Source of the DNA: a virus
DNA length: 64,000 nt
Strand: one strand, 5' to 3'
Virus record (IMG/VR): IMGVR_UViG_3300025889_000083
Coordinates: 1 to 64,000 of that record
The notes under the pieces were generated by a model. The model saw only the letters and a program-made list of their open reading frames with translations. It was not told the DNA's origin and ran no database searches. Below, in pieces: positions 15,069 to 44,099 of this stretch (positions are counted from its first letter, which is position 1; each line of letters starts with the position of its first letter). Made by a program: the position numbers and the translations under genes.

Positions 15069-15930
15069 TAATTGGGTAAGAGAAGAGGATGATGTAATTA
15101 TAGACGGAATGTTAGAAGACTTATCTAACGATGAAATTGCTATACGCTTGACGGAAACATTTGGTACAGAGTACAGAGAATACCACCAAGATAAAGTCAG
15201 AGGTAGAACAGCGACACTAAGAAAACAAAATTATCGTGATATACATAGTATAAAAAGATCAACTAAAAGAAGAAAAGCAGGAGAAGTACGTAAGTGGACT
15301 GAGGAAGAAATAGAACTTCTTAAAGAACTACGTAACGAAGGCTTTACATCTCCTCAAATCTGTAAAGTATTTAATGAAACATTTACAGATACTAGATGGA
15401 CTCCAAAGATGATTGAAAATTATTTAGCAAATAATAATATTTCTAAAAATACTCATCAAGCAAGCAAAGCAGATACTTGGTATGAAGATAATAAATCTAG
15501 AATACCAGAGCATATAGAATTTGTTAGATTTAATAATATTAGAAATATTGATTTTAAATGTATTGAGTGCGGGCATGAGTTTCACAGACCTAATGCAATG
15601 ACAGAAAGTCCTTGTCCTGCATGTAAATATCCTGTTTCAAACTATGTTTATTTATATGATTTTCCCGAGTGGATAAAAGTCGGATTAGCAGTCAACCCAA
15701 AAAATCGTCCTACTGGCACATGGGAAAATTACGAATTAGTAAAGACATGGAAATTTCCTGATAGACCCAGTGCACAAGAGTTTGAAAAACATACTTTAAC
15801 CCACTGGAGAGGAAAAGCACAAGCGAGTGTTCCTGAAATTTTTGACGGATACACAGAATGTTTACAAAAAGAATTTAAAGAAGAAATAATAAAATGGATA
15901 GATAAAGAGTATGAAAGTCGCATTAATTGA
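15061..15930 (+). mobile_element. putative free-standing homing endonuclease (Myb-like repeats, Zn finger, GIY-YIG/MUG113-like C-terminus)
   Basis: W..EE repeats, CIEC...CPAC, YVYLY...IKVG....R...E...GYTEC; lies between primase and polymerase. Confidence 0.6.
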
Positions 15931-18175
15931 GAGTATACCAACAAGTACAGATTTTAACAAGTATCTTGACTTCGACTTTGATCGTTTTGCACTTTGCAGC
16001 GACAGTAGTAAGAAGAAGATACTAAAACGAGATGTCGATATTGAAATCAATATTGACGATTATGAATGGCTAGTCCTAGTGGGGTCAGAGCCTTTCAAAC
16101 AATTTACACGTAAGTCTTCAATCACCGAATACAATGGAAAAGTAATTGACGAGAAATTTCTCGGTCTAATCAATCCTGCAATGATTCGATTTAAACCTGA
16201 AGCCAAGAAAAGTTTTGAAGAAGCCATCGAGAGTATCAATGGATATGTCTCTGGTGCGCTAAAAATAGAGAAGTTAGACAATGATAAATGTTATGGGATC
16301 ACAGATCCAGAAAGTGCTAAAAAGTTTATATCAGATGCCATCAAAGCTCCTTACGACTTTGTGGCAATGGACTCAGAGACGTCCGCCCTATATCCAAGAG
16401 ATGGTTATATGCTTGGTGTGTCTCTCAGCTATGAACCTGATCATGGTTGCTACATTCACGCTGACTGCATAGATAGCGAAGTAGAGAAACTTCTACAGGA
16501 GTTATTTAACACGAAGAAAGTAGTATTTCACAATGCCAAGTTTGATATTGCATGGTTTGAGTATCACTTTGGATTTAAGTTTCCTCGTTTTGAAGACACC
16601 ATGCTCATGCACTATATGTTCAACGAGAATCCTGGCAATCACGGACTAAAAACTCTTGCTATGAAACACACTCCCTATGGGGACTATGAAAAAACACTTG
16701 AAGATTGGTCAGAAACTTATCGTAGACAAAATGGTATTCTAAAAGATGACTTTGATTATAGCATGATACCATTCGATGTCATGAAGGACTACGCGGCAAT
16801 GGATGCCGTAGTTACGTTCCTTTTATATCAAAAAATGTCTGCAGCACTGGTCAAGAACGAAAAACTATACGGCGTCTACACAAATATTTTATTAGAAGGT
16901 TGTAGATTTTTGCTCGACATTCAAGATAACGGAGTGCCGTTTGACAAAGAAAGACTGGTTGAAGCACAGAGTATCATGTCGAAGCAGATTGATGAAGCAG
17001 TGGAAACACTACAGAAACACCCAGCTGTCCAGCAGTTTATAAAGGACAAAGGTGCTTTCAATCCCAATAGTACTTTACAGTTAAGAGAGTTGTTATTTGA
17101 TTATGTAGGGCTAGCCCCAACGGGTAAGAAAACTGGCACGGGTGCAGATAGTACAGATGCGGAAGTTTTACAGACATTGGCAGAGGAGCATGAGATTCCT
17201 GGACTCATATTAGAGGTTCGTCAGAAAGTTAAGATCAAGAATACATATCTTGACAAGATTATTCCAAGTTTAGATCGTGATAGTCGGTTACGAACAAATT
17301 TCAATCTGCATGGCACGACTTCAGGGCGACTCTCCAGTAGTGGAAAACTGAATATGCAACAGTTGCCTCGTGATAATCCCACCGTGAAAGGTTGCATCAA
17401 AGCTGCCGAAGGCAGCCAGATTGTTGCAATGGACTTAACAACAGCAGAGGTTTATGTTGCTGCCGTTCTTTCACAAGATATCGGTCTGATGGAAGTGTTT
17501 CGATCAGGTGGAAACTTTCACAGTACGATTGCAAAACAAGTATTTAACCTACCCTGTGAGGTAGAGGATGTAGAGAAATTCTACAAAGAGAAAAGACAAC
17601 AAGCAAAAGCTGTTACTTTCGGCATCATGTATGGTGCTGGACCAAGCAAGATCTCTTGGCAGGTTACAAAGGACAGCGGACAAGAATTTACAGTAGGAGA
17701 AGCTACAAAAGTTATTAAAGATTACTTTGCTGCTTTTCCAAGATTAAAGAAGTGGTTAGATGACAATCAAAAATTTATTTCAGCAAATGCGTTTACTTAC
17801 AGTATCTTCGGAAGAAAGAGACGATTGCCAGACGCAAAGTCACAGGATAAAGGAATTGCTTCTCATGCTATTCGGAGCGGAATCAACTTTCTCGTTCAGT
17901 CTGTTGCCTCCGATATCAATCTACTGGGCGGTATCGACATGCAAAAGTATATTCAACGAACAGGCATGAAAGCAAAGATATTTGCATTGGTTCATGACTC
18001 CATACTTGCGGAAGTACCGAATGATGAAGTCGATCATTACAAAGAAAAACTCGCAGAATACATACAAATGGATCGTGGATGTACAATCCCAGGCTGTCCA
18101 GTTGGTTGTGACTTTGAAGTAGGTGAAGATTATTCTATGGGAAAATTCACCGCATATTATGATAATACACAGTAG
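15911..18175 (+). CDS. pol: family A DNA polymerase with 3'-5' exonuclease (T5-like)
   Basis: DSET, HNAKFD and YAAMD exonuclease motifs; TSGRLSS, motif A DLTTAE, motif B RQQAKAVTFGIMYG and motif C VHDS. Confidence 0.95.
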   Translation: MKVALIESIPTSTDFNKYLDFDFDRFALCSDSSKKKILKRDVDIEINIDDYEWLVLVGSEPFKQFTRKSSITEYNGKVIDEKFLGLINPAMIRFKPEAKKSFEEAIESINGYVSGALKIEKLDNDKCYGITDPESAKKFISDAIKAPYDFVAMDSETSALYPRDGYMLGVSLSYEPDHGCYIHADCIDSEVEKLLQELFNTKKVVFHNAKFDIAWFEYHFGFKFPRFEDTMLMHYMFNENPGNHGLKTLAMKHTPYGDYEKTLEDWSETYRRQNGILKDDFDYSMIPFDVMKDYAAMDAVVTFLLYQKMSAALVKNEKLYGVYTNILLEGCRFLLDIQDNGVPFDKERLVEAQSIMSKQIDEAVETLQKHPAVQQFIKDKGAFNPNSTLQLRELLFDYVGLAPTGKKTGTGADSTDAEVLQTLAEEHEIPGLILEVRQKVKIKNTYLDKIIPSLDRDSRLRTNFNLHGTTSGRLSSSGKLNMQQLPRDNPTVKGCIKAAEGSQIVAMDLTTAEVYVAAVLSQDIGLMEVFRSGGNFHSTIAKQVFNLPCEVEDVEKFYKEKRQQAKAVTFGIMYGAGPSKISWQVTKDSGQEFTVGEATKVIKDYFAAFPRLKKWLDDNQKFISANAFTYSIFGRKRRLPDAKSQDKGIASHAIRSGINFLVQSVASDINLLGGIDMQKYIQRTGMKAKIFALVHDSILAEVPNDEVDHYKEKLAEYIQMDRGCTIPGCPVGCDFEVGEDYSMGKFTAYYDNTQ

Positions 18176-18671
18176 AAAATTAATCTTTATACACATTCCG
18201 AAATCGGGTGGAACAAGTATAAAAGAATCTCTTACAAGAGAGTGGAATCTTGATATACAGTTTGAAAAACTTAGTAATTTTCCGCCTTATATAGAGAAAG
18301 ACGGATTACAGGCATGGCATTTTAATTACTGGGATGCCATAGATATTCATCCCGATTATGAATATATAACACAGGTTAGACACCCTGTGAATAGATGGGT
18401 AAGTTACTACAAGATGATACGAGAGTTTCATAAAGAGCCGTACTCTTTTGAAGAATTTACAGATAAGTTTCTTGGAGTAAGATTTACAACACAACAGTTT
18501 AAATGGGTAGGTGAGTGCGAAGTACACCGCCTTGAAGATAGAACAATATGGAAACGATTGGGTATTCCAGAAAGAAAAGACAATGTAACAACTATTTCAG
18601 TTGAAGTATCACAATACCATAGACAAAAAATAGAAGAATATTTTAAAGAGGATATGAAAAAATGGTATTAG
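18123..18671 (+). CDS. sulfotransferase
   Basis: FIHIPKSGGTS and VRHPVNRWVSYY. Confidence 0.8.
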   Translation: MKIILWENSPHIMIIHSRKLIFIHIPKSGGTSIKESLTREWNLDIQFEKLSNFPPYIEKDGLQAWHFNYWDAIDIHPDYEYITQVRHPVNRWVSYYKMIREFHKEPYSFEEFTDKFLGVRFTTQQFKWVGECEVHRLEDRTIWKRLGIPERKDNVTTISVEVSQYHRQKIEEYFKEDMKKWY

Positions 18672-34490: not shown

Positions 34491-34678
34491 CAACAATTAG
34501 TATAGACGGCGTCGAATATGATGTCGAAGGCATGACTAAAGAACAACGCTTGTTAGTAAATGCGATTGGGTATTGTGATAAAAGAAAAACAGAACTCGAT
34601 CACGAATTGGCAGCGATACAAACTGCTAGACAAGCGTATGTTAATGACTTAGGAGCACAATTAAAAGGAGAAGAATGA
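34487..34678 (+). CDS. small coiled-coil protein
   Basis: ISIDGVEY followed by a heptad helix. Confidence 0.6.
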   Translation: MTTISIDGVEYDVEGMTKEQRLLVNAIGYCDKRKTELDHELAAIQTARQAYVNDLGAQLKGEE

Positions 34679-35328
34679 AAATCTTTATAGGATATGATAG
34701 TGAACACCCCGAAGCATACGAAGTATGTAAGGCAAGTATTTTAAAACATAATCCTTTACATGAGATACATCCTTTAATTAATAAGAAATTGAGAAAGAAA
34801 GGACTCTATGACAGACCAAAACACTTAATGGAAAGTACAGAGTTCTCCTTTACTCGATTTCTAGTTCCTTTGTTATGTAACTACACAGGGCGCGCACTCT
34901 ATTGTGATGGAGATTTTCTTTGGAGATGTGATCCTCAAGAACTTACACATCATATGAATGATGAAGATGTTGCAGTAGTAAAACATCCAAAGTTTAGTAT
35001 AAAAACTAAAAAGATGAAAAATAAAGGAAATGCAGATTACGATATGAAATATTGGAGTAGTTTGATGTTCTTTGATTGTGCAAAATGTGATAGTTTAACA
35101 AAGTGGTATGTGAGTAATGCTCATGCTGCACACTTACATGGCTTTTCATGGGCTAGTAAGATAGGCAGCATCCCAGCAAGTTTTAATGCACTTGTTGGAT
35201 ATTACGACTTTGGTAAAAAATATACAAAAGCCGTCCACTTTACAGATGGCGGACCGTGGCTGGAAGGCTACGAAAACGTGGAGTTTGCAGACGAATGGTT
35301 TCAGATAAAATCAGAAATAAGTCAGTAA
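34675..35328 (+). CDS. GT8-like glycosyltransferase
   Basis: IFIGYD, STEFSFTRFLVP, DGD (DxD), WSS.M and HFT.GGPW. Confidence 0.8.
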   Translation: MKIFIGYDSEHPEAYEVCKASILKHNPLHEIHPLINKKLRKKGLYDRPKHLMESTEFSFTRFLVPLLCNYTGRALYCDGDFLWRCDPQELTHHMNDEDVAVVKHPKFSIKTKKMKNKGNADYDMKYWSSLMFFDCAKCDSLTKWYVSNAHAAHLHGFSWASKIGSIPASFNALVGYYDFGKKYTKAVHFTDGGPWLEGYENVEFADEWFQIKSEISQ

Positions 35329-35942
35329 TTCTAGTAGGAAACTCTGTCGAGTTATTAGAGTATGAATATGGAGACTATATAGAATCCTTTGATATAATAG
35401 TAAGATTCGGCAGAGGTATTCCTCGCCCAGATATTTATAAATCAGTTGGAAAACGAACTGATATCTGGATTACTGGATTTTTGAGAGCAAACTTTCATCC
35501 ACACTTTCCTACCGCACTGAAACTTCTTAATCGGTGCAGAATACACTTAAATAAAAAACCTACTCGAGAAATAGTTTTCGATCACGAAGTAATGTACTCA
35601 GATGATGAGTTAATGCTTATATTTGAAGAATTTGGTTGTAAAAACGGAGATGCAAATGCGTTGCGACCAAGTGCTGGTTATATGGGTGTTCATTATTTTG
35701 TGAATAAAATGAACATGTGGAAAAACTTAAATCTAATAGGTTTCGACTTTTTTCAAAAGAAACTTCCATGGAAACTAGGACAGGACTATCCTTCAAGTTG
35801 GCATTTACCAGAGAATACAATACAGAGAAGTCCACATGCAAAAGATAAAGAACGAGAAATCGTTAGTCAGTGGAACGAGAAAGGAATACTAAATTGGAAA
35901 ATACTTTCTGATTTGAAAGAAGAATTAATAGACTTTTCCTAG
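35256..35942 (+). CDS. GT29 (sialyltransferase)-like protein
   Basis: V.LVGNS...I..FD.IVR...VGKRTD (sialylmotif L-like), PSAG and LIGFDF. Confidence 0.65.
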   Translation: MAGRLRKRGVCRRMVSDKIRNKSVILVGNSVELLEYEYGDYIESFDIIVRFGRGIPRPDIYKSVGKRTDIWITGFLRANFHPHFPTALKLLNRCRIHLNKKPTREIVFDHEVMYSDDELMLIFEEFGCKNGDANALRPSAGYMGVHYFVNKMNMWKNLNLIGFDFFQKKLPWKLGQDYPSSWHLPENTIQRSPHAKDKEREIVSQWNEKGILNWKILSDLKEELIDFS

Positions 35943-36884
35943 AATATAACCTGCTTGAAGTATTTTTCGTGTAGCTTGCTTTTGCTTTTCAGCTTTTAAC
36001 AAGATTCTTTCATTTACTCTAGCGTTTCTAAGATTTACAGGGATTCTGTCTATTAAATTTGCATATAGATCAAAAGGAACTGCTAATGCTACTCCCATAG
36101 GACAGTCAGCATATTCAGCAACTAAATATTTATGATCGCAACTAATAGAAAATGCTTTTCTCATTGCAATATTATGATTAAGAGTATCTGCTGTACCGAT
36201 AGAATCAACTTTGATAAGATAATCTACCTTCATACTTGCATACAAAGGCATATGTCCAAATTTATAAGTTTTTAATGCGTTAAAAAATACATTATTTCTT
36301 GCACCATTAATATAGGCATCAAGTCTGTGTTCTAATCCAATAACTGCAGGAGCTCTGCCGTCTTCAAAGAATAATTCATGATCTCCTATCTTATCTAGTT
36401 CATCCCAATTAAATAGCATAAAATTAGTATCTAAATCATTTTTCTCATGTGAAACTCCAAGTATATTGTAATAATTTCTATACATTGGATGCTCTATATA
36501 CTGCCATCTTTTAGGAGCCATAACAACACCTTTTTGCCAGTCTGCTGGTGGTAATTGTCCTACCCAGTCTCTAAGAAATATTCTATTGTCTCCGAACATT
36601 AAAACTCTTTTATTGAGTTTACCATTCTTACTTCCTTCGCCTCTATACCATCTTCTTATAAGAAGTAAAAATTTTGCTTGCCAGTTACCATTAGCTACCT
36701 TTGAAGGTATTTGATAGCATTTATAATTTTTGAAATTTCTGTCAATCCATTCAACAACTTCTTTGTCCCATTGATCTTCATGAAACCCAACATGTAGGCG
36801 AAAGCTATCCCCATCCCAATCTAACATGGATGCGAGTGTGAACATTCCGTACACTGGTTTGTATCTATAAATTACTTCTATCAT
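35925..36884 (-). CDS. putative glycosyltransferase-like protein
   Basis: Weak GT8-like features (TLASM, TNFMLFN); last gene of the late unit, lying between GT-like genes. Confidence 0.4.
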   Translation of the reverse strand: MIEVIYRYKPVYGMFTLASMLDWDGDSFRLHVGFHEDQWDKEVVEWIDRNFKNYKCYQIPSKVANGNWQAKFLLLIRRWYRGEGSKNGKLNKRVLMFGDNRIFLRDWVGQLPPADWQKGVVMAPKRWQYIEHPMYRNYYNILGVSHEKNDLDTNFMLFNWDELDKIGDHELFFEDGRAPAVIGLEHRLDAYINGARNNVFFNALKTYKFGHMPLYASMKVDYLIKVDSIGTADTLNHNIAMRKAFSISCDHKYLVAEYADCPMGVALAVPFDLYANLIDRIPVNLRNARVNERILLKAEKQKQATRKILQAGYILGKVY

Positions 36885-37795
36885 TTTGCCATCTTATATT
36901 CCCAGAAGGAGTGTAGGTATCTATCCATACGTTCTTCTGCATCGTTATCAAAGTTAAAAATTATACCTGAGTGTTTTGCACTAAGGAGTTTACATAGTGC
37001 TGTATATGCACCTTGTTGTGAACACTGATTTGATATAGCGTAGTAAAAACTTTCGTAAGTAAGTAGATTTTTTTCTCTTACATCTTTTGGTGTACTTACT
37101 AAGCGTAGTTTTTTACCTAGTAAAATTGCTATCAAACCCATTTCACTATTTGGTGCACAAGCTACTTCTTTTGCGTTCATAAGAAGTTCAAATCCACCTG
37201 ACTTTTTATTCAAGATTTTATCTGCTCCAAGTTTTTCTCTTAGCAGTGCCATCCAAATGTGTGCTGTTATTGGATGCGGTTTTACCATAAATCCATCTGC
37301 TACTGCCTGTCGCATTTTATTCCAGTCTAAAGTATTTTTATACATTAGATTACTGCCAGGCGGGAATATTACTTTATCATAGAACTCTGGATTTGTTTGT
37401 AAAACATATTTATTGTGAAGATTGTCTTTTATCTTTTGTATTCTATCTTCATCAATTTCTATATCGCCATTTACTATTCCAGCAAAAAACTTATCATTGA
37501 TTTTTATAGACGGAACTCTCATTACAATTCCTTTGCCTAAAAAATCAGTATAAAGCCATGCTCTTATAGTTGAGACTTCATTTGTATTAAACCAAATATC
37601 ATATTCAAATGGTCTACCTCTAAATGAATCTCTGATTACTCTTTTACGAAATTCTGCTAAGTCGTTAAGATCCTCTTTAGGTCTAAATGCGCTTCCTGAT
37701 TTCATAAAATGAGTTGGTATATCACCAAGACATTCATTTATTGTTAGAGCTTGAAGTGGCTTTTTTGGTTTTACTATTCCGCCTTCTTGAGCCAT
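36881..37795 (-). CDS. KpsS/KpsC-like capsule-synthesis (GT-B) protein
   Basis: VKPHP and NSEMGLIAILLGK resemble the KxHP and NSxxGxEA..GK motifs. Confidence 0.6.
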   Translation of the reverse strand: MAQEGGIVKPKKPLQALTINECLGDIPTHFMKSGSAFRPKEDLNDLAEFRKRVIRDSFRGRPFEYDIWFNTNEVSTIRAWLYTDFLGKGIVMRVPSIKINDKFFAGIVNGDIEIDEDRIQKIKDNLHNKYVLQTNPEFYDKVIFPPGSNLMYKNTLDWNKMRQAVADGFMVKPHPITAHIWMALLREKLGADKILNKKSGGFELLMNAKEVACAPNSEMGLIAILLGKKLRLVSTPKDVREKNLLTYESFYYAISNQCSQQGAYTALCKLLSAKHSGIIFNFDNDAEERMDRYLHSFWEYKMAK

Positions 37796-37965
37796 TCTCT
37801 AAACTCCTTTTGAAGTTGGTAAAGTACCACTTCAATATTTTTTATTCTTTCTTCATTTTCGCCCATATTATCAAATATGGCTGCCATCATGCTTTCTAAT
37901 TTCTTATTTACATAATCGGCGTCTACTTTTGTATCTTTATGTCCTTCTATCAAGTCTCGCTCCAT
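37774..37965 (-). CDS. small coiled-coil protein
   Basis: Heptad repeat; overlaps both neighbours. Confidence 0.6.
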   Translation of the reverse strand: MERDLIEGHKDTKVDADYVNKKLESMMAAIFDNMGENEERIKNIEVVLYQLQKEFREWLKKAE

Positions 37966-40610
37966 TTAGAGCCATCCCAATAGGACTGCCCTAGATCTTG
38001 AGCACTTGCCACTTCTGTATCGAAGATTGTTCCTAATGTGGAGGCGGTTATTCTTTCATAAATCACAGTATTAGTTGCTGTTGCAAATACTGTGAGGTGA
38101 TCTGTAGTTCTGCTGGTCTCTGTAAGTCTATTTGAACTTGTTGTTCTAACTGTAGCGGTGGATTGCGTAGTATTAAATGTTGTGGTTGTAGTATATGCTG
38201 TAGTTGTAGCAAATAGAGTAGCAGTTGATCTTGTAGTATTAAATACTGTAGTTGTTTCTCTAGTAGTGTTAAATGTTGTAACTGTTGCATAAGCAGTTGT
38301 AGTTGTATATGCAGTAGTTGTAGCTTTAGTTGTAATGTAAGTTGTTGTAGTTGTATATGCTGTAGTAGTACTATAAGCAGTTGTTGTTCCTTGAGAAGTA
38401 TTAAATGTTGTAGTTGTTTCTCTAGTAGTGTTAAATGTGGTTGTAGTCGTATACGCTGTTGTAGTTGTATAAGCAGTTGTTGTTGCGTTACTTGTTATAA
38501 ATGTAGTTGTAGTATTATATGAAGTTGTAGTTGTATATGCTGTAGTTGTAGCTTTACTGGTTATAAATGTTGTAGTTGTTGTATAAGCAGTTGTAGTTGT
38601 ATAAGCTGTAGTTGTAGACTTACTGGTTATAAATGTTGTGGTTGTGCTATACGCTGTTGTAGTTGTATATGCAGTAGTAGTTGCCTTCGAAGTATTAAAT
38701 GTTGTAGTTGTACTTCTTGATGTACCAGTAGCTCTTGATGTAATACGTGAAGTTATATATGCAGTTTCATAGTTTGTTATTCTAGAAGTTGCTGTATTAT
38801 CAATATATGCTGTGGTTGTACCTCTAGCAGTATTTGTATTATTTGTAAATCCAGTATTATCTACATAAGCTGTTGTTGTACCACGAGCTGTATTTGTTGT
38901 ATTTGTAAATCCTGTATTATCTATAAATGCTGTAGTTGTATTTCTCGCTGTGTTTGTTGCATTTGTAAATCCAGTGTTATCTATAAAGCCTGTCGCAAAT
39001 GCTGTTGAGTTCGTAAATCCTGTAGCACGAGCAGTATTTGTGTTTCGATAAGTTGTTCTTGCTGTGTTTGTAGTGTTTGTAAATCCAGTAGAGTTTGTAA
39101 ATCCTGTACCACGAGCTGTATTCGTATTTCTATAAGTTGTTCTCGCAGTATTTGTTGTATTTGTAAATCCAGTTGAGTTTGTAAATCCAGTAGCGTATGT
39201 AGTAGATCCACTAAACGCAGTATTTCTAGAAGTATTTGTCCATCTAGTAAAGAAACCTTCTGACTGATCTCCGTATACTGTAATATTTTGGAATGTAGTT
39301 AATCTTATACCAGATGTAATTCTAGTTGTGTTTCTAGCAGTATTTGTATTTCTGGATGTTGCTGTATTGTCTATAAATCCAGTAGCAAAAGCTGTTGAGT
39401 TTGTAAATCCAGTATTTCTTGATGTGTTTGTATTTCTGGAAGTTGCAGTATTATCTATGAAACCTGTAGCAAAAGCAGTCGAGTTTGTAAATCCTGTGCT
39501 ACGAGAAGTATTTGTATTTCTGTATGTAGTTCTCGCTGTGTTTGTTGCTCTTGCAGTATTTGTGTTGTCAATAAATGCAGTACCTGTAATTCTAGCGGTA
39601 TTTGTCGCTCTTGAAGTGGCTGTATTGTCAATAAACGCTGTAGATGTAATTCTAGCAGTGTTTGTAGCTCTAGCTGTATTTGTAGCATCAATATATGCTG
39701 TAGATGTAATTCTAGCAGTGTTTGTTGCATTTGTAAACCCTGTAGTTCTACTTGTTGTGATAGTTGTATCATATGAAGTAGTATATGTAGTAGTGGTATT
39801 GTAAGCTGTGGTTGTAGCTTGTGAAGTATTAAAAATTGTAGTAGTACTTCTTGATGTTGCTGTACCTCTACTTGTACCAGTAGCTTGTGATGTATTGAAA
39901 GAAGTTGTTGTACTTCTTGATGTACCAGTACCTCTACTTGTTGCAGTACCTTGTGATGTATTATAAGAAGTTGTTGTACTTCTTGATGTTCCAGTACCTC
40001 TACTTGTTCCAGTAGCTTTTGAAGTATTATAAGCTGTAGTAGTTGATCTACTTGTACCAGTTCCTCTACTTGTTGCAGTTGACTGAGTAGTATTAAATGT
40101 AGTTGTTGTTGACTGTGTTGTGTTAAATACAGTTGTTGTCTCTCTACTTGTACCAGTACTTCTTGATGTTGCTGTTCCTTGCGATGTATTATAAGCTGTT
40201 GTAGTACTTCTACTTGTAGCAGTTCCTCTTGATGTACCAGTTGATTGTGTAGTATTAAATGTAGTTGTTGTTGACTGACTAGTGTTAAATGTAGTTGTAG
40301 TACTTTGTGAAGTTCCTGTTGCTCTACTTGTTGCAGTTGACTGAGTAGTATTAAATGTAGTTATTGTATTAAAGACAGTGCTAGTATCAAAGACAGTAGT
40401 TGTATTAAAAGTAGTTACCTGAATACCTGATACATATGTTGTTTCAGTATTTGTAACTCGCAATGTATCATGCACTGCAACAAATGGTCCTTCTAACGAA
40501 CCACCATCATTTACATAAACTTCATTGGCACGACGAAGCGTACCGCCATCGTTGACAGCTACAAAGCGTAACTGGCGTAAAGTGCCATTGTCGTTTACAT
40601 AAATTGCCAT
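37950..40610 (-). CDS. Thr-rich self-complementary repeat protein, putative giant beta-hairpin fibre
   Basis: 886 aa; YVNDxG N-terminal module, TxT repeats with Arg/aromatic mirror symmetry, YWDGSKW C-terminus; lies in the tail-fibre operon. Confidence 0.85.
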   Translation of the reverse strand: MAIYVNDNGTLRQLRFVAVNDGGTLRRANEVYVNDGGSLEGPFVAVHDTLRVTNTETTYVSGIQVTTFNTTTVFDTSTVFNTITTFNTTQSTATSRATGTSQSTTTTFNTSQSTTTTFNTTQSTGTSRGTATSRSTTTAYNTSQGTATSRSTGTSRETTTVFNTTQSTTTTFNTTQSTATSRGTGTSRSTTTAYNTSKATGTSRGTGTSRSTTTSYNTSQGTATSRGTGTSRSTTTSFNTSQATGTSRGTATSRSTTTIFNTSQATTTAYNTTTTYTTSYDTTITTSRTTGFTNATNTARITSTAYIDATNTARATNTARITSTAFIDNTATSRATNTARITGTAFIDNTNTARATNTARTTYRNTNTSRSTGFTNSTAFATGFIDNTATSRNTNTSRNTGFTNSTAFATGFIDNTATSRNTNTARNTTRITSGIRLTTFQNITVYGDQSEGFFTRWTNTSRNTAFSGSTTYATGFTNSTGFTNTTNTARTTYRNTNTARGTGFTNSTGFTNTTNTARTTYRNTNTARATGFTNSTAFATGFIDNTGFTNATNTARNTTTAFIDNTGFTNTTNTARGTTTAYVDNTGFTNNTNTARGTTTAYIDNTATSRITNYETAYITSRITSRATGTSRSTTTTFNTSKATTTAYTTTTAYSTTTTFITSKSTTTAYTTTTAYTTTTTFITSKATTTAYTTTTSYNTTTTFITSNATTTAYTTTTAYTTTTTFNTTRETTTTFNTSQGTTTAYSTTTAYTTTTTYITTKATTTAYTTTTAYATVTTFNTTRETTTVFNTTRSTATLFATTTAYTTTTTFNTTQSTATVRTTSSNRLTETSRTTDHLTVFATATNTVIYERITASTLGTIFDTEVASAQDLGQSYWDGSKWSET
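38100..40420 (-). repeat. degenerate tandem coding repeats (10-, 20-, 22- and 28-aa periods)
   Basis: Recurring GTAGTTGT / AGTTGTTGT-type DNA units; TSRxTxTSR, TTTAYTTTT and TGFTN peptide units. Confidence 0.9.
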
Positions 40611-40621
40611 TTAATTATCTC

Positions 40622-40840
40622 TTAATATACGTACCAGACGTGTCCACTACTTGTTGATCCTACGGAAACTGGAGCAGTTGTTGTTATTGTGTAAGGAAGT
40701 CGAGCAGAAGCAATAGTTCCACTATCGATTTTATCGGCAGAGATAGTTACACTTGCCATTCCTCTACTTGAATCAATACTTTCTGTTCCGTCTACGGATA
40801 GACCAGCGTCTTCGATATTAAAGTTTAGTTTTACACCCAT
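40622..40840 (-). CDS. small fibre adaptor protein
   Basis: I.A.KI.SGT..SARLP and a C-terminal TTAP...GHVWY motif. Confidence 0.6.
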   Translation of the reverse strand: MGVKLNFNIEDAGLSVDGTESIDSSRGMASVTISADKIDSGTIASARLPYTITTTAPVSVGSTSSGHVWYVY

Positions 40841-40841
40841 T

Positions 40842-43800
40842 TTATACCTCTATTGTTGTTCTAATAAATTTGTAAGTCATGCTATCTGTTGAAGCAGGAG
40901 TTACTAATAATCTTACATTACCACCGCTTATATCTGCATCAAATGTTGCCTGAGCAAGATTGTCAAAGATAGATGCGAACTGTGTTAAGTATACATTTGT
41001 TCCGTCATGGAAAAGTAAAATTTCTAATGCTTGATAATCCCCATCAGTTGTGTTATGAACCTGTACTATATATTTTGCAGTTCTAAATGTTGCTGAAGCG
41101 AAAGAATCAAGTGCAAATTGTGATGTTGAAGATGAACTTCCTGTACCTACATCCATACCCGCCACTTCATCAATGTGAAGTTTTTGTGGTGGGCTTGTAT
41201 CTTGAATACCTAATACACCTGCTGCATTTGTTATATCAGTAGTTCCATTACCAAGTGTTGTTGTTCCTTGTGTATTTACATCACCTGAGAAAGTTACTGT
41301 GCCACTAAATGTTTGTCCACTTAATGCACCACTTGCTAACTCACTTGTTCCAATAGCATTTGCGGCAATCTTAGCTGAAGTTACTGAATTACTTGCTAAA
41401 TGAATTGCATCTACAGATCCAGTTACTAACTCACTTGAATCTACTGAGTTTGCAGCAATTTCAGATGAACCTACTGCATTACCTGCTATTTCACTTGAGC
41501 CTACTGCATTTCCAGCAATCTTAGTTGCGGTTACTGCATTTGAAGCAATGTGTATTTCATCAATAGATCCACTTACTAATTCGCTAGAATCTACTGAGTT
41601 TGCTGCTAAGTGTGATGCATCTATAGAATCAGTTGCAATTTTATTTGCGGTTACTGCATTATCTGCAATATGAATATCATCAATTGATCCACTTACTAAT
41701 TCACTGCTATCTACTGAGTTAGCGGCGATTTCTGTTGCTGTAACTGCATTTACTGCAATTTTCGCATTTGTTACTTGTAAGTCTCCAATATGAATAGTAT
41801 CAATGCTACCACTTACTAACTCACTTGAATCTACTGAGTTAGCGGCGATTTTTGTTGATGTTACAGCATTATCTGTTATTTGTAAAGTACCTACGCCATT
41901 AGTTTCAATTTCACTTGTTCCAACTGAGTTTGCTGCAATATGTCTTGCTACTATTGAATTACTTGCAATTTCGTCACTTGTTACAGCATTTGCGCTGAAG
42001 TGAATTGTATCAATAGACCCACTTGCTAATTCGCTGGAGTCTACTGAGTTTGCAGCTATTTTAGCAGCTGTTACAGCATTTGCTGCTATTTTTGCTTCGG
42101 TTACAGAATCAGTTGATAAGTGAACTGCATTAACAGCACCACTTATAATTTCAGCAGAATCTACTGCATTTGCGGCGATCTCTGAAGATCCTACTGCTCC
42201 TGCACTAATATGTATTGCTAGAATAGAATCAGTTGCAATTTCACTTGATCCAACTGAATTTTCTGCAATTTCTTCTGATCCAACTGCATTTGCAGCGATC
42301 TGTAAAGAGCCTACTGCGTTAGCAGCTACTGCACTTGCTGTTCCTGTTAAGTTTCCTTCGACATTTGCTACAAGAGTTCCTACTGTATAACCAGAAGCAC
42401 CTGTGTCTACAGTTGAAGTAGGAGCTACTTGTGAATCAACAAATAGTTTCCATTTGTTGTCATTTGCATCTCTGAAAAGACCTGCATATAAATCTGTTCC
42501 TGCTGGATCGTATAATCCATAAAGTCCGATATCGATTGCATCTGTTGAATCATTTGTAGATGCAACCTGTACAAGACCATCTTCAACTGTTAATGTTGTT
42601 GAAGAAACTATAGTCTCGCTTCCTGAAACAGTTAAGTTTCCAGAAACTACTAAGTCATTCATTGTAAAGTTTGAAGTATTTGATAATTTCGCACCAGTAA
42701 TAGCATTGTCTGCTAAATGAATAGTTAATACGCTACCAGTTACTAACTCACTTGAATCCACTGAGTTTGCGGCGATTGTTTCTGCAGTAACTGCATTTGA
42801 AGCAATTTTATTTGCTGTAACTGCGTTTGCGGCAATAGCATTTTCTACAACTGCACTTGCTGATAAGTGAATTGAATCGATAGAGCCAGTTACAAGTTCG
42901 CTACTATCAACAGAGTTTTCTGCTATTTCTGCGGAACCTACTGCATTTGCGGCTATTTTAGCAGCTGTTACTGCATTGTCACCTAAGTTATGAGTTGTAA
43001 CATTTCCTTCTACAATATGTCTTGTTAAAATACTATTTGTAGCAATTTTATCTGATGTAACTGCATTATCTTGAAGACAGTGTGTTTGAATTGAGTTACC
43101 AGCAATAATTCCATGAGTAACAGAGTTAGAAGCAATTTCAACTCCTGTTACAGCATTTGCTGCTATTTTAGCAGTTGTTACTGCTAATGAAGCAATCTGC
43201 GCTGATCCAACTGCATCACTTGCTATTTCACTTGTACCTACTGCATTTGCACTAATTTCAGCATTTGTTATAGAGTTATCTGCCATCGCATCATTAGTAA
43301 CTGCATTTGTTCCAATATGAATTGTATCTACTGCTCCAGAAGCAAGATGTACTCCTGTAACTGCATTACTTGCGATTTGAGTTGATTGTACTGAGTTTAA
43401 TTTAATTTCTGCGGAGCCTACTGAATTAGAAGCTATTTTTGCAGTTGTAACTGCATTAGCTGCTATTTGTACTGTTCCTACTGAATCAGTTGCTAAATGT
43501 AAAGCTGTGATTGAATTTGTTGATATTTCACTTGATCCTACAACGTTCTCTGCTATCTTAGCGGCAGTAATTGCGTTGTCGGTAATATGTGTAGTTTGTA
43601 CTGCATCGGTTGCAAGTTCTGAACTTGTAACCGCATTTTCAGCGATTTCACTTTGACCTACTGCATTAGCGGCTATCTGTGGAGCACCGACAGCATTTGA
43701 GGCGATCTCTGCAGTATCTACAGAGTTAGCGGCAATTTCATTTGAAGTGACAGCATTTGCAGCTAGTTTTGCAGTTGTAACTGCACCAGTTGAAATATGA

Positions 43801-44099
43801 ATAGAATCAATAGACCCACTTACTAATTCGCTGGAGTCTACTGAGTTTGCAGCAATAGCTGCTGCATCAATTGAGTTATCGCTTACTGCTGTAACTGCTG
43901 TACTCGCTAATTCCCTAGATGTAATAGCGTTTGCTTGAATCTTAGCGGAAGTAATCGAGTTAGTTGATAGTTCTGAAGTTGTAATACAGTTTGCAGTAAT
44001 TTCTGATGCAGTAATACTATTGCTTACAATTTCGGTTGTACCAACTGAGTTTGCTTCTAGCGATGCTACAAGTGCTAGTTGTTTACCTATAAGTGCCAT
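40842..44099 (-). CDS. long tail fibre with 10-aa repeats
   Basis: IAANAVTTAK / IAANSVDSSE repeats flank a GNLTVSG..T.V.STTL.VED domain; C-terminal FRTAKY..Q...E....HDG domain. Confidence 0.8.
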   Translation of the reverse strand: MALIGKQLALVASLEANSVGTTEIVSNSITASEITANCITTSELSTNSITSAKIQANAITSRELASTAVTAVSDNSIDAAAIAANSVDSSELVSGSIDSIHISTGAVTTAKLAANAVTSNEIAANSVDTAEIASNAVGAPQIAANAVGQSEIAENAVTSSELATDAVQTTHITDNAITAAKIAENVVGSSEISTNSITALHLATDSVGTVQIAANAVTTAKIASNSVGSAEIKLNSVQSTQIASNAVTGVHLASGAVDTIHIGTNAVTNDAMADNSITNAEISANAVGTSEIASDAVGSAQIASLAVTTAKIAANAVTGVEIASNSVTHGIIAGNSIQTHCLQDNAVTSDKIATNSILTRHIVEGNVTTHNLGDNAVTAAKIAANAVGSAEIAENSVDSSELVTGSIDSIHLSASAVVENAIAANAVTANKIASNAVTAETIAANSVDSSELVTGSVLTIHLADNAITGAKLSNTSNFTMNDLVVSGNLTVSGSETIVSSTTLTVEDGLVQVASTNDSTDAIDIGLYGLYDPAGTDLYAGLFRDANDNKWKLFVDSQVAPTSTVDTGASGYTVGTLVANVEGNLTGTASAVAANAVGSLQIAANAVGSEEIAENSVGSSEIATDSILAIHISAGAVGSSEIAANAVDSAEIISGAVNAVHLSTDSVTEAKIAANAVTAAKIAANSVDSSELASGSIDTIHFSANAVTSDEIASNSIVARHIAANSVGTSEIETNGVGTLQITDNAVTSTKIAANSVDSSELVSGSIDTIHIGDLQVTNAKIAVNAVTATEIAANSVDSSELVSGSIDDIHIADNAVTANKIATDSIDASHLAANSVDSSELVSGSIDEIHIASNAVTATKIAGNAVGSSEIAGNAVGSSEIAANSVDSSELVTGSVDAIHLASNSVTSAKIAANAIGTSELASGALSGQTFSGTVTFSGDVNTQGTTTLGNGTTDITNAAGVLGIQDTSPPQKLHIDEVAGMDVGTGSSSSTSQFALDSFASATFRTAKYIVQVHNTTDGDYQALEILLFHDGTNVYLTQFASIFDNLAQATFDADISGGNVRLLVTPASTDSMTYKFIRTTIEV

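Follow-up and report, generated by a model that had tools for sequence, protein, structure and literature searches.

Predicted glycosylation of a threonine-rich repeat protein by a KpsC/WbbB-like protein encoded beside it in a marine T5-like phage

Results and discussion

In a marine T5-like phage, four glycosyltransferase-like genes (O1 to O4) adjoin the gene for a repeat protein, hp886, that consists of 38% threonine. As an O4-like enzyme also follows Thr-rich proteins in several unrelated phages, O4 is predicted to sugar-coat hp886, and we consider it somewhat better than an even chance that O4 transfers the sugar of a CMP-ulosonic acid to hp886 in the host cytoplasm, giving a heavily glycosylated fibre-associated protein. 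The prediction is drawn from sequence, and we found no published description of this system in the literature.

Organisation of the locus

Within the window, i.e. the whole stretch of 64,000 nucleotides analysed, the gene of the proposed acceptor hp886 (37950-40610, 886 aa) is located on the minus (late) strand and overlaps by 16 nt the gene of cc63 (37774-37965), a small K/E-rich coiled-coil protein and putative partner of O4. The O4 gene (36881-37795), encoding a KpsC/WbbB-like GT-B protein with an HP motif, overlaps cc63 by 22 nt and is in turn overlapped by 4 nt by the gene of O3 (35925-36884), a GT8-fold GT-A protein lacking DxD. The latter converges head-on with the GT29-like (sialyltransferase-like) O2 gene (35295-35942) of the plus (early) strand, their stop ends overlapping by 18 nt. 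The O2 frame is open from a GTG at 35256, but relatives favour the ATG at 35295 as the true start. O2 is preceded on the early strand by O1 (34675-35328), a GT-A, GT8-like nucleotide-sugar transferase as judged by motifs, with nrdA, nrdB and a 63-aa ORF further upstream. On the other side of hp886 lie s72 (40622-40840, minus strand), encoding a small protein conserved at the same position in related loci (identity 56-69%), and tf1085 (40842-44099, minus strand), which matches phrog_892 tail fiber protein (E 3e-124). As a tail fibre gene is next along, hp886 belongs to the fibre operon, and we infer that the protein is part of the virion. The gene positions and order, the late-strand overlaps and the head-on meeting with the early unit are all as placed by the original prediction. 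The layout is identical in 80/80 related IMG/VR loci, which represent one phage family and hence count as one observation.

Serine and threonine together make up 47% of hp886, with threonine reaching 41% in the core (residues 61-840), and the motifs T[ST]R and TTx[FYW] occur more often than in composition-matched shuffles (z 7-8). All 47 related loci spanning the interval encode a homologue, 668-1556 aa long and with 35-40% Thr.

A cassette shared with unrelated phages

The combination of a Thr-rich repeat protein, a coiled coil and an O4-like enzyme recurs outside this phage morphotype, in KVP40 (KVP40.0254 with 29% Thr, 19% Ser and TSR repeats, the coiled coil KVP40.0255 and the O4 homologue KVP40.0256) and in Cr30 (coiled coil gp252, then gp253 and gp254 with ~20% Thr, and the O4 homologue gp255), and without the coiled coil in Lullwater (tail fibre gp40, gp41 with 26% Thr and the O4 homologue gp42). 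In these three phages the O4-like gene comes directly behind the Thr-rich repeat proteins. In hp886, KVP40.0254, Lullwater gp41 and Cr30 gp254, T[ST]R is commoner than composition alone would give. In DLP6, a large fibre-like ORF that is less Thr-rich, and by the motif test not a TSR-repeat protein, is followed by a coiled coil and then by an O4 homologue. No recognisable structural module was seen around the KVP40 cassette. The coiled-coil protein cc63 has a homologue in DLP6, AAY80_001 (E 5e-6), and a weak one in KVP40.0255 (E 3e-3), and a coiled coil is naturally fused to an O4 domain in P0347. Since O4 stands without a further transferase in Lullwater and Cr30, it can accompany a Thr-rich protein alone. 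We propose that hp886, cc63 and O4 are one copy of a cassette moving between unrelated tailed phages.

O4 resembles Kdo transferases and is predicted to be an enzyme

The guess that O4 is KpsS/KpsC-like agrees with the structural comparisons of its AF2 model (pLDDT 76), in which KpsC/WbbB came out on top by Foldseek (E 3e-4, prob 1.0) and in two VIA searches. The Z-scores for KpsC/WbbB were 7.6-8.8 compared to 6.5 for the next family, a moderate match, as values of 8.5-8.8 fall in the range where VIA warns of a possible common arrangement; the unbiased structure search among 48,161 chains ranked KpsC, WbbB and again KpsC first. The best PDB match of the O4 family profile was also KpsC, aligned over the HP motif with an E of 0.14, below significance, and PF05159 was weakly matched by 4 of 64 family members. 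Sequence and model together suggest that O4, whose family numbers 325 clusters at 50% identity, is distantly related to the Kdo transferases of bacteria. Residues K129, Y130, N149, K172, H174 and P175 are invariant across 64 diverse relatives, D66 and E218 are kept in at least 90% of family members and the CMP-binding HP motif is retained. The QXXXD nucleophile motif of beta-Kdo transferases is absent from the 64-relative alignment, its position being occupied by PG[ST]N with Asn149 invariant in 64/64. Having Asn in place of the Asp nucleophile, O4 is not a canonical retaining Kdo transferase and probably does without the covalent double-displacement route.

That O4 is missing the Asp nucleophile motif found in its closest structural relatives would also suit a non-enzymatic role, in which O4 and the coiled coil serve the Thr-rich protein as a chaperone for folding or assembly or as a structural partner, by analogy with GtfB, the non-catalytic GT-B partner in serine-rich-repeat adhesin systems. 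The tight linkage of O4 to the substrate gene, the existence of coiled-coil fusions and the N-terminal 85 residues, which are conserved yet poorly modelled, fit such a role as well. We nevertheless regard it as unlikely, since the invariant polar residues, together with D66 and E218, are placed as in an active site and follow the order in which KpsC has its base, sugar-binding residues, nucleophile position and HP motif. Furthermore, the natural fusion P0336 of a bona fide GT-A domain (PF11397, polypeptide GlcNAc-transferase family) with an O4 domain fits a two-step glycosylation enzyme better. O4 thus conserves polar residues and the HP motif as an enzyme would, from which we infer enzymatic activity.

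O3 was originally described as another GT-like gene, which its AF2 model (pLDDT 89) narrows to a GT8-clan GT-A fold, with structural Z-scores of 16.0 for WbbM, 15.5 for GlyE and 14.9 for LgtC. DxD is absent, as the alignment reads x-G-N-R-I-F where GT8 enzymes carry it, and R242-K243 is invariant. The O3 family is confined to this phage group, and the protein, which is translationally coupled to O4, would most simply be a lineage-specific extending enzyme. As O4 lacks QXXXD and O3 lacks DxD, either could be catalytically unusual or inactive. That each of them is without one canonical catalytic motif and that both lie at the end of the fibre operon would be consistent with the alternative in the original prediction, according to which the GT-like proteins, instead of being enzymes, bind glycans or receptors as part of the virion. 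For O4 this is disfavoured by the active-site-like conservation including the nucleotide-binding HP motif; O1 keeps DxD and is, like O2, an early-strand gene, and no GT-fold receptor-binding protein is known to us from phages, which makes the alternative very improbable.

The early-strand pair O1 and O2

O2 exceeded the Pfam cut-off for PF00777 (23.9 bits against 23), a family to which most of its relatives have a precomputed assignment, and its family profile matched GT29 structures only; ST3Gal-I (E 1.5e-4) aligned over sialyl motif L and was collinear with motif S. The invariant motifs are VGNS, RxSxG, GFDFF, SWHxP and PH. The GT29-like assignment of O2 thus held, and O2 is likely a CMP-sugar user as well. 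For O1, the suspected GT8 likeness is backed by the invariant motifs D78-x-D80 and HFTDGGPW, by weak Pfam GT8 matches among relatives (O1 itself is below the cut-off) and by ESM-Atlas neighbours, which are glycosyltransferase clusters with PF01501 in 14%. O1 also matches phrog_28018; in DLP6 and CcrColossus its homologues carry the annotation nucleotide-diphospho-sugar transferase.

As a separate early-strand pair, O1 and O2 may extend the hp886 glycan or serve another acceptor. A possible, though less probable, reading is that O4, perhaps with O3, serves the Thr-rich protein while O1 and O2 form an independent early module remodelling a glycan of the host envelope (LPS core, O-antigen or capsule), possibly for superinfection blocking or receptor change, or another acceptor. 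The pair follows nrdAB on the early strand; its DLP6 counterpart has a methyltransferase and a GT4 for neighbours and is separated from the O4 cassette by ~50 kb. Searches that included a positive control showed O1 homologues but no O4 in Mosig, S-SCSM2R and CcrColossus, O2-like genes without O4 in two uncultured jumbo phages, and O4 without O1/O2 in KVP40, Cr30 and Lullwater. Radical-SAM and SDR genes are inserted between O1 and O2 in relatives, as often in glycan clusters, and the C-terminal helix of O3 is basic and conserved, as in membrane-associated GT8 enzymes such as LgtC. On the other hand, the pair abuts the cassette in all 80 related loci, DLP6 as the sole other phage with O1 and O2 has O4 too, and the CcrColossus O1 homologue is grouped with sialyltransferase-like and Capsule_synth-like genes directly 3' of a tail protein gene. 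By inspection, no signal peptide or membrane span was recognised in O1-O4, which argues against an envelope target. As O1/O2 and O4 occur without each other, a single four-enzyme pathway is unproven; the only pointer to one aimed at the fibre is adjacency within one phage family. The original glycosylation reading is partly supported, by the GT-like nature of all four ORFs, the recurrence of the O4 cassette, the natural fusions and the enzyme-like conservation of O4.

The nucleotide-metabolism genes next to O1/O2, and the ThyX inserted between the two in some relatives, could also point to hypermodification of phage DNA with sugars including ulosonic acids, for which phage GT-A/GT-B enzymes capable of attaching Kdo-like and other sugars to the 5hmC of DNA provide a precedent (bioRxiv 10.1101/2023.12.21.572611). 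However, no thymidylate-synthase-type hydroxymethylase, ThyX, TET/JBP dioxygenase or C5 cytosine methyltransferase was found in the complete genome, so that precursor genes are absent, and O4 always adjoins Thr-rich protein genes, not DNA-modification genes; we therefore give this explanation hardly any weight.

In the favoured reading, the glycosylation of hp886, O4 would act in the host cytoplasm late in infection, held or targeted by its coiled-coil partner. The predicted acceptor would be the Thr/Ser repeat hydroxyls or an initial sugar previously added to them. As donor, O4 would use a CMP-activated ulosonic acid made by the host (Kdo or a nonulosonic acid), and the product would be a heavily glycosylated, probably acidic, fibre-associated protein. 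CMP-ulosonic acids are plausible donors for both O4 and O2, and Vibrio and Caulobacter, in which the cultured carriers grow, make nonulosonic acids. The genome encodes neither kdsA/kdsB nor other genes of CMP-sugar synthesis, so that the donor is a guess.

Comparison with known systems

O4 has the modified GT-B architecture in common with the retaining beta-Kdo transferases KpsC/KpsS (GT107), WbbB (GT99) and KrkA. The KpsC catalytic and Kdo-binding residues are described in PMC10148158, and the acidic D66 of the N-terminal domain and the Lys/Tyr pair of O4 follow their order, with the HP motif HMM-aligned. Unlike KpsC/WbbB, O4 has PG[ST]N as the topologically equivalent loop instead of QXXXD, is a single phage-encoded module of ~300 aa and is linked to a candidate protein substrate, not to capsule or O-antigen loci. 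O2 shares with GT29 sialyltransferases (ST3Gal-I, PDB 2wml) a clear sialyl motif L, a collinear motif S and W-H element and two invariant His residues, whereas motifs III and VS are approximate only and the phage-encoded protein of ~215 aa, having neither membrane anchor nor stem, would be cytoplasmic. O3 shares the GT8 fold (LgtC, glycogenin, GlyE) over residues 1-286 (Z 13-16) but has R242-K243 instead of DxD and the conserved metal-binding His, which suggests metal-independent catalysis or none. O1, below the Pfam GT8 cut-off, has DxD and an H-x-x-G-G-P-W resembling the GT8 C-terminal motif. GlyE, the GT8 enzyme of the pneumococcal serine-rich-repeat adhesin pathway, and glycogenin both act on proteins.

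Virion glycosylation in mycobacteriophages was reportedly described by Freeman et al. 2023 (Cell Host Microbe; cited in PMC12801897). The likeness is that phage GT genes are found in or next to the structural operon and that their products presumably modify virion proteins in the cytoplasm. In the present case the hosts are Gram-negative and not actinobacterial, and other enzyme families are involved; a dedicated Thr-rich repeat protein is the candidate acceptor, CMP-ulosonic acids are the probable donors and the system is known from genes alone. In Maf/FlmG flagellin O-glycosylation, a CMP-activated acidic keto-sugar is transferred directly to Ser/Thr of a structural protein while this is in the cytoplasm, ahead of export or assembly; a similar attachment is proposed for hp886. 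The enzyme family of O4 is unrelated to Maf/FlmG, and the only protein with a MptE/Maf-like domain is CcrColossus gp126.

Organisation of the locus

The record is complete (104,148 bp), the window covering its first 64 kb. On the minus strand, the gene of a 1085-aa tail fibre protein (tf1085, 40842-44099; phrog_892, E 3e-124) precedes a small conserved gene (s72, 40622-40840), followed by the genes of the Thr-rich repeat protein hp886 (37950-40610; 38% Thr, 47% Ser+Thr), the small coiled-coil protein cc63 (37774-37965), the KpsC/WbbB-like GT-B protein O4 (36881-37795) and the GT8-fold protein O3 (35925-36884), with successive overlaps hp886/cc63, cc63/O4 and O4/O3 of 16, 22 and 4 nt. This unit also carries other large structural genes besides tf1085. 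On the plus strand, nrdB and a 63-aa ORF (s63) lie upstream of O1, GT8-like by motifs (34675-35328), which overlaps the GT29-like O2. The longest O2 ORF, from GTG 35256, gives a 73-nt overlap with O1; alignment with relatives places the start at ATG 35295, leaving a 34-nt overlap and a protein of 215 aa. O2 and O3 lie head-on and their stops overlap by 18 nt. The plus-strand unit ahead of the cluster encodes Mre11/Rad50-like proteins, a PDDEXK nuclease, a flap endonuclease and nrdA/nrdB, and this predicted gene content fits a T5-like phage. The original prediction had therefore described the locus correctly in every particular.

The order tf, s72, hp, cc63, O4, O3 facing O2, O1, s63, nrdB, nrdA is kept in all 80 family loci, which belong to one lineage and thus count as one data point. 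A promoter and terminator scan returned sites no commoner than expected by chance, NCBIfam gave no match for any of the six proteins searched, and nrdB was the sole match in a DNA-level search of the phage collection.

The Thr-rich protein and its cassette

Each of the 47 family loci that span the interval has a gene for a protein 668-1556 aa long, of which 35-40% is Thr. Homologues of the Thr-rich protein occurring without glycosyltransferases were looked for within the phage family of the window, and 47/47 spanning loci have both. Evidence from unrelated phages for a cassette of Thr-rich protein, coiled coil and O4-like enzyme comes from the cultured phages with an O4 homologue, namely KVP40, Cr30, Lullwater and DLP6. 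In KVP40, the 197-aa product of KVP40.0254 (29% Thr, 19% Ser), with TSR and TTxY repeats as in hp886, is encoded beside a 72-aa coiled coil (KVP40.0255) and the O4 homologue (KVP40.0256). The Cr30 set, located just before the neck genes, comprises a coiled coil (gp252), two proteins with about 20% Thr (gp253, gp254) and the O4 homologue (gp255), and in the podovirus Lullwater the O4 homologue gp42 comes after the tail fibre gp40 and gp41, the latter with 26% Thr. T[ST]R motifs exceed composition-matched shuffles in hp886 (z 6.9), KVP40.0254 (5.7), Cr30 gp254 (3.7) and Lullwater gp41 (2.2). In DLP6, an ORF of about 1340 aa is followed by a cc63 homologue (E 5e-6) and the O4 homologue, but the Thr content of this ORF is just 15% and the repeat motif is missing from it. 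The predicted co-occurrence of glycosyltransferases with the Thr-rich protein thus stands for O4 in KVP40, Cr30 and Lullwater; it does not extend to the less Thr-rich ORF of DLP6 or to O1 and O2, which are separable.

Two metagenomic proteins join cassette parts in one chain: P0347 (376 aa) fuses a KVP40.0255-like coiled coil (E 6e-5) to an O4 domain, and P0336 (592 aa) fuses a PF11397 GlcNAc-transferase domain (E 2e-15) to an O4 domain. These natural fusions tie the parts of the cassette together. Single distant O4 relatives used as queries matched no IMG/VR loci. Taken at the level of gene neighbourhoods, the link of O4 and cc63 to the Thr-rich protein gives strong comparative support to a putative dedicated modification system.

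The large ORF of the Stenotrophomonas phage DLP6 is unannotated in KU682439.2, where it spans the record ends and a 229-bp terminal repeat (positions 15894-18488 of locus extract L086 and 3-1655 of L082), and its C-terminus (C...SHN) resembles a Hint/intein-type autoprocessing domain.

The early-strand pair and O3

O2 matches Pfam PF00777 over sialyl motif L at 23.9 bits (cut-off 23), precomputed PF00777 assignments are found in most of the 120 O2 relatives among the matches listed, and one relative is named GT29 family protein in its NCBI record. The O2 family profile, which includes the DLP6 homologue, retrieved exclusively GT29 structures (ST3Gal-I at E 1.5e-4, followed by ST6Gal-I and ST8Sia-III); the alignment shows a clear motif L and a collinear but weak motif S. 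VGNS, RxSxG, GFDFF, SWHxP and PH are invariant, and SWHxP and PH(x3-4)E, both with an invariant His, sit where motifs III and VS are expected. Both the Pfam score and the profile search therefore uphold the earlier GT29-like assignment. In O1, D78-x-D80 and HFTDGGPW are invariant. The protein matches phrog_28018, and its language-model neighbours in the ESM Atlas are glycosyltransferase clusters, 14% of which carry PF01501. In Pfam, where PF01501 was sought, the window O1 gave no match and its relatives gave weak GT-A-clan matches, one at E 0.018.

In two sub-lineages of the window's phage family (L018:12434-13832 and L076:13168-15282), O1 and O2 are separated by an inserted radical-SAM/SPASM gene and a short SDR-like one. 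In the L076 type, ThyX is inserted there as well, and O3 and O2 have a Coq4-like gene between them.

Profile searches for the O4, O1 and O2 families in named phages, run with a positive control, detected the O4 family at E values no worse than 1e-53 in DLP6, Lullwater, KVP40 and Cr30, and no O4 family member in five phages with O1 or O2 homologues (Mosig, S-SCSM2R, CcrColossus, LR756508 and LR756500). DLP6 is the only one of the four cultured O4 carriers with O1 and O2, and there the pair lies ~50 kb from the cassette, with methyltransferase, glutaredoxin and GT4 genes beside it. Because some phages have O4 without O1/O2 and others O1 or O2 without O4, the pair and the cassette are, judged by their distribution, separable modules, and the adjacency of O1/O2 to the cassette in the window is only suggestive of one pathway.

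Other genomes place O1 homologues in varied surroundings. In the Synechococcus phage S-SCSM2R (L089:6001-9526, ORF261-265), which has kdsB and kdsA of its own, the homologue is annotated as GT24 and lies at a distance of three genes from these two, an arrangement that hints at a link of the O1 family to Kdo metabolism. Directly after a tail protein gene, gp126-gp131 of the Caulobacter phage CcrColossus (L092:1620-6173) include an MptE/Maf-like "sialyltransferase", an O1 homologue, a methyltransferase and a GT9; the same cluster encodes a protein with a weak Capsule_synth match and an HP motif, and no Thr-rich protein was seen nearby. In Pelagibacter phage Mosig (L088:2946-8780), the O1 homologue lies downstream of nrdAB alongside two methyltransferases, a sulfotransferase-like gene and a second glycosyltransferase, a context resembling the early-strand position of O1/O2 in the window, in a genome from which the O4 family is absent. 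Candidate O2 partners beside the S-SCSM2R and Mosig homologues were compared and are unrelated to O2.

O3, originally noted as another glycosyltransferase-like gene, has a predicted GT-A fold of the GT8 clan (model pLDDT 89); over residues 1-286 the Z score is 16.0 for WbbM, 15.5 for GlyE, 14.9 for LgtC, about 14.5 for UGGT and 13.5 for glycogenin. The model provided by the ESM Atlas shows this fold too, and the glycosyltransferase-like assignment holds. A conserved DxD after strand 4 was not found (column consensus x-G-N-R-I-F; G-D-N in the window), nor is the metal-binding His conserved in the alignment; what is conserved is R242-K243 and, at the C-terminus, a basic helix (288-314). All 36 clusters of the O3 family come from the window's phage group, and tblastn of O3 against 50,697 phage records gave no match. 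No relation was detectable between O3 and DLP6 AAY80_003 or between O1 and O3, and Pfam gave no match for DLP6 AAY80_003 or KVP40.0257.

Structure and conservation of O4

The AlphaFold2 model of O4 (pLDDT 76, good from residue 85 on) matched WbbB by Foldseek with E 3e-4 and probability 1.0. Comparison by VIA gave moderate Z scores of 8.8-7.6 to WbbB/KpsC over 200-222 residues, the next family reaching 6.5, and a Foldseek-independent search of 48,161 representative chains ranked KpsC (8.5), WbbB (7.8) and KpsC (7.6) as best matches. The model has the modified GT-B fold specific to beta-Kdo glycosyltransferases (GT107 KpsC/KpsS, GT99 WbbB). With KpsC and WbbB ranking first structurally, the KpsS/KpsC-like guess for this gene is borne out.

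HMMER, run against 1.84 billion representatives, yielded 325 O4 clusters, from which 64 diverse members, 20-35% identical, were used to assess conservation. K129, Y130, N149, K172, H174 and P175 are invariant, and D66, D128, P146, G147, E218, K228 and G277 are conserved in at least 90%. Such invariant polar residues speak against a role of O4 as a chaperone or glycan-binding protein, a reading that we disfavour relative to an enzyme. The HP motif, in which His acts as general acid on the CMP phosphate, corresponds to H174-P175 in O4, is present in 64/64 relatives and is HMM-aligned to the HP motif of KpsC (6mgb). This structure is also the best PDB match of the 64-member profile, over K-x-H-P and S-E-x-G...G-K, at an E value of just 0.14. 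Capsule_synth (PF05159) is the sole Pfam family matched by more than one O4 member (4/64, weak, best E 0.018); the window O4 did not match it at E<=1, nor did any protein of the genome at E<=10. Sequence-library searches gave no match for the window O4, and close-relative profiles of O1, O3 and O4 returned nothing useful from PDB sequences.

Within O4 residues 1-85, the motifs LGDIPTHFMKSGS and YDIWFNTN...LYTDFLG are strongly conserved, yet pLDDT is <50; this stretch may need cc63 or the repeat protein as a partner in order to fold.

Neither kdsA nor kdsB was found in the complete genome, so any CMP-sugar would have to come from the host. The transferases could instead hypermodify phage DNA with sugars, a modification that does occur in other phages, where the sugars can be Kdo-like (bioRxiv 10.1101/2023.12.21.572611), but four families of precursor enzymes (ThyA-type hydroxymethylase, ThyX, TET/JBP and C5 methyltransferase) are absent from the complete genome, which leaves this very improbable here.

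A putative system for virion glycosylation

The virion glycosylation originally proposed is thus partly supported, for O4 with cc63, through the link to the Thr-rich protein; a joint pathway of four enzymes is not, O1 and O2 being separable. We infer which donor and which chemistry are used, what parts O1, O2 and O3 play, and that hp886 belongs to the virion. As a tentative model, which we hold possible rather than probable, a KpsC-like enzyme with Asn in place of the Asp nucleophile, together with a coiled-coil adaptor, would O-link a CMP-activated ulosonic acid (Kdo or nonulosonic) directly to hundreds of Thr residues of the repeat protein, as a widespread, undescribed system of Gram-negative phages; in this marine lineage the GT29-like and the two GT8-like enzymes would elaborate the glycan, giving an acidic mucin-like virion whisker. 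Our literature searches found no published description of the cassette.

If this holds, tailed phages of Gram-negatives would use their own enzymes to produce fibre proteins that are heavily glycosylated and probably acidic. KVP40, a model vibriophage, would be among them, as would Caulobacter phages and the abundant T5-like phages of the sea. This would bear on phage adsorption to hosts, on sticking to mucus or marine particles and on evasion of grazers and immune recognition, as well as on the reading of virion proteomes, in which glycosylated proteins would escape detection or be assigned a wrong size. Bacterial viruses would then also be a place where a GT29-like enzyme occurs, and the small beta-Kdo transferase superfamily would gain a new branch with a different catalytic residue. 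The hypothesis is directly testable in culturable phages.

KpsC and WbbB require an Asp nucleophile, within an invariant QXXXD, the HP-motif His and a Glu base (PMC10148158). QXXXD is absent in O4, whose C-terminal domain has [FV]-L-P-G-[ST]-N in the loop that follows its first strand, with no Asp and with an invariant N149, the equivalence of the two loops being judged by topology and spacing and not by residue-level superposition. On these motifs O4 is very probably a CMP-sugar enzyme and is predicted not to be a canonical retaining Kdo transferase. Compared with KpsC and WbbB, it keeps the HP motif and the acidic D66 but has Asn at the nucleophile-loop position, and we therefore place it as a distant, motif-divergent relative of the beta-Kdo transferases.
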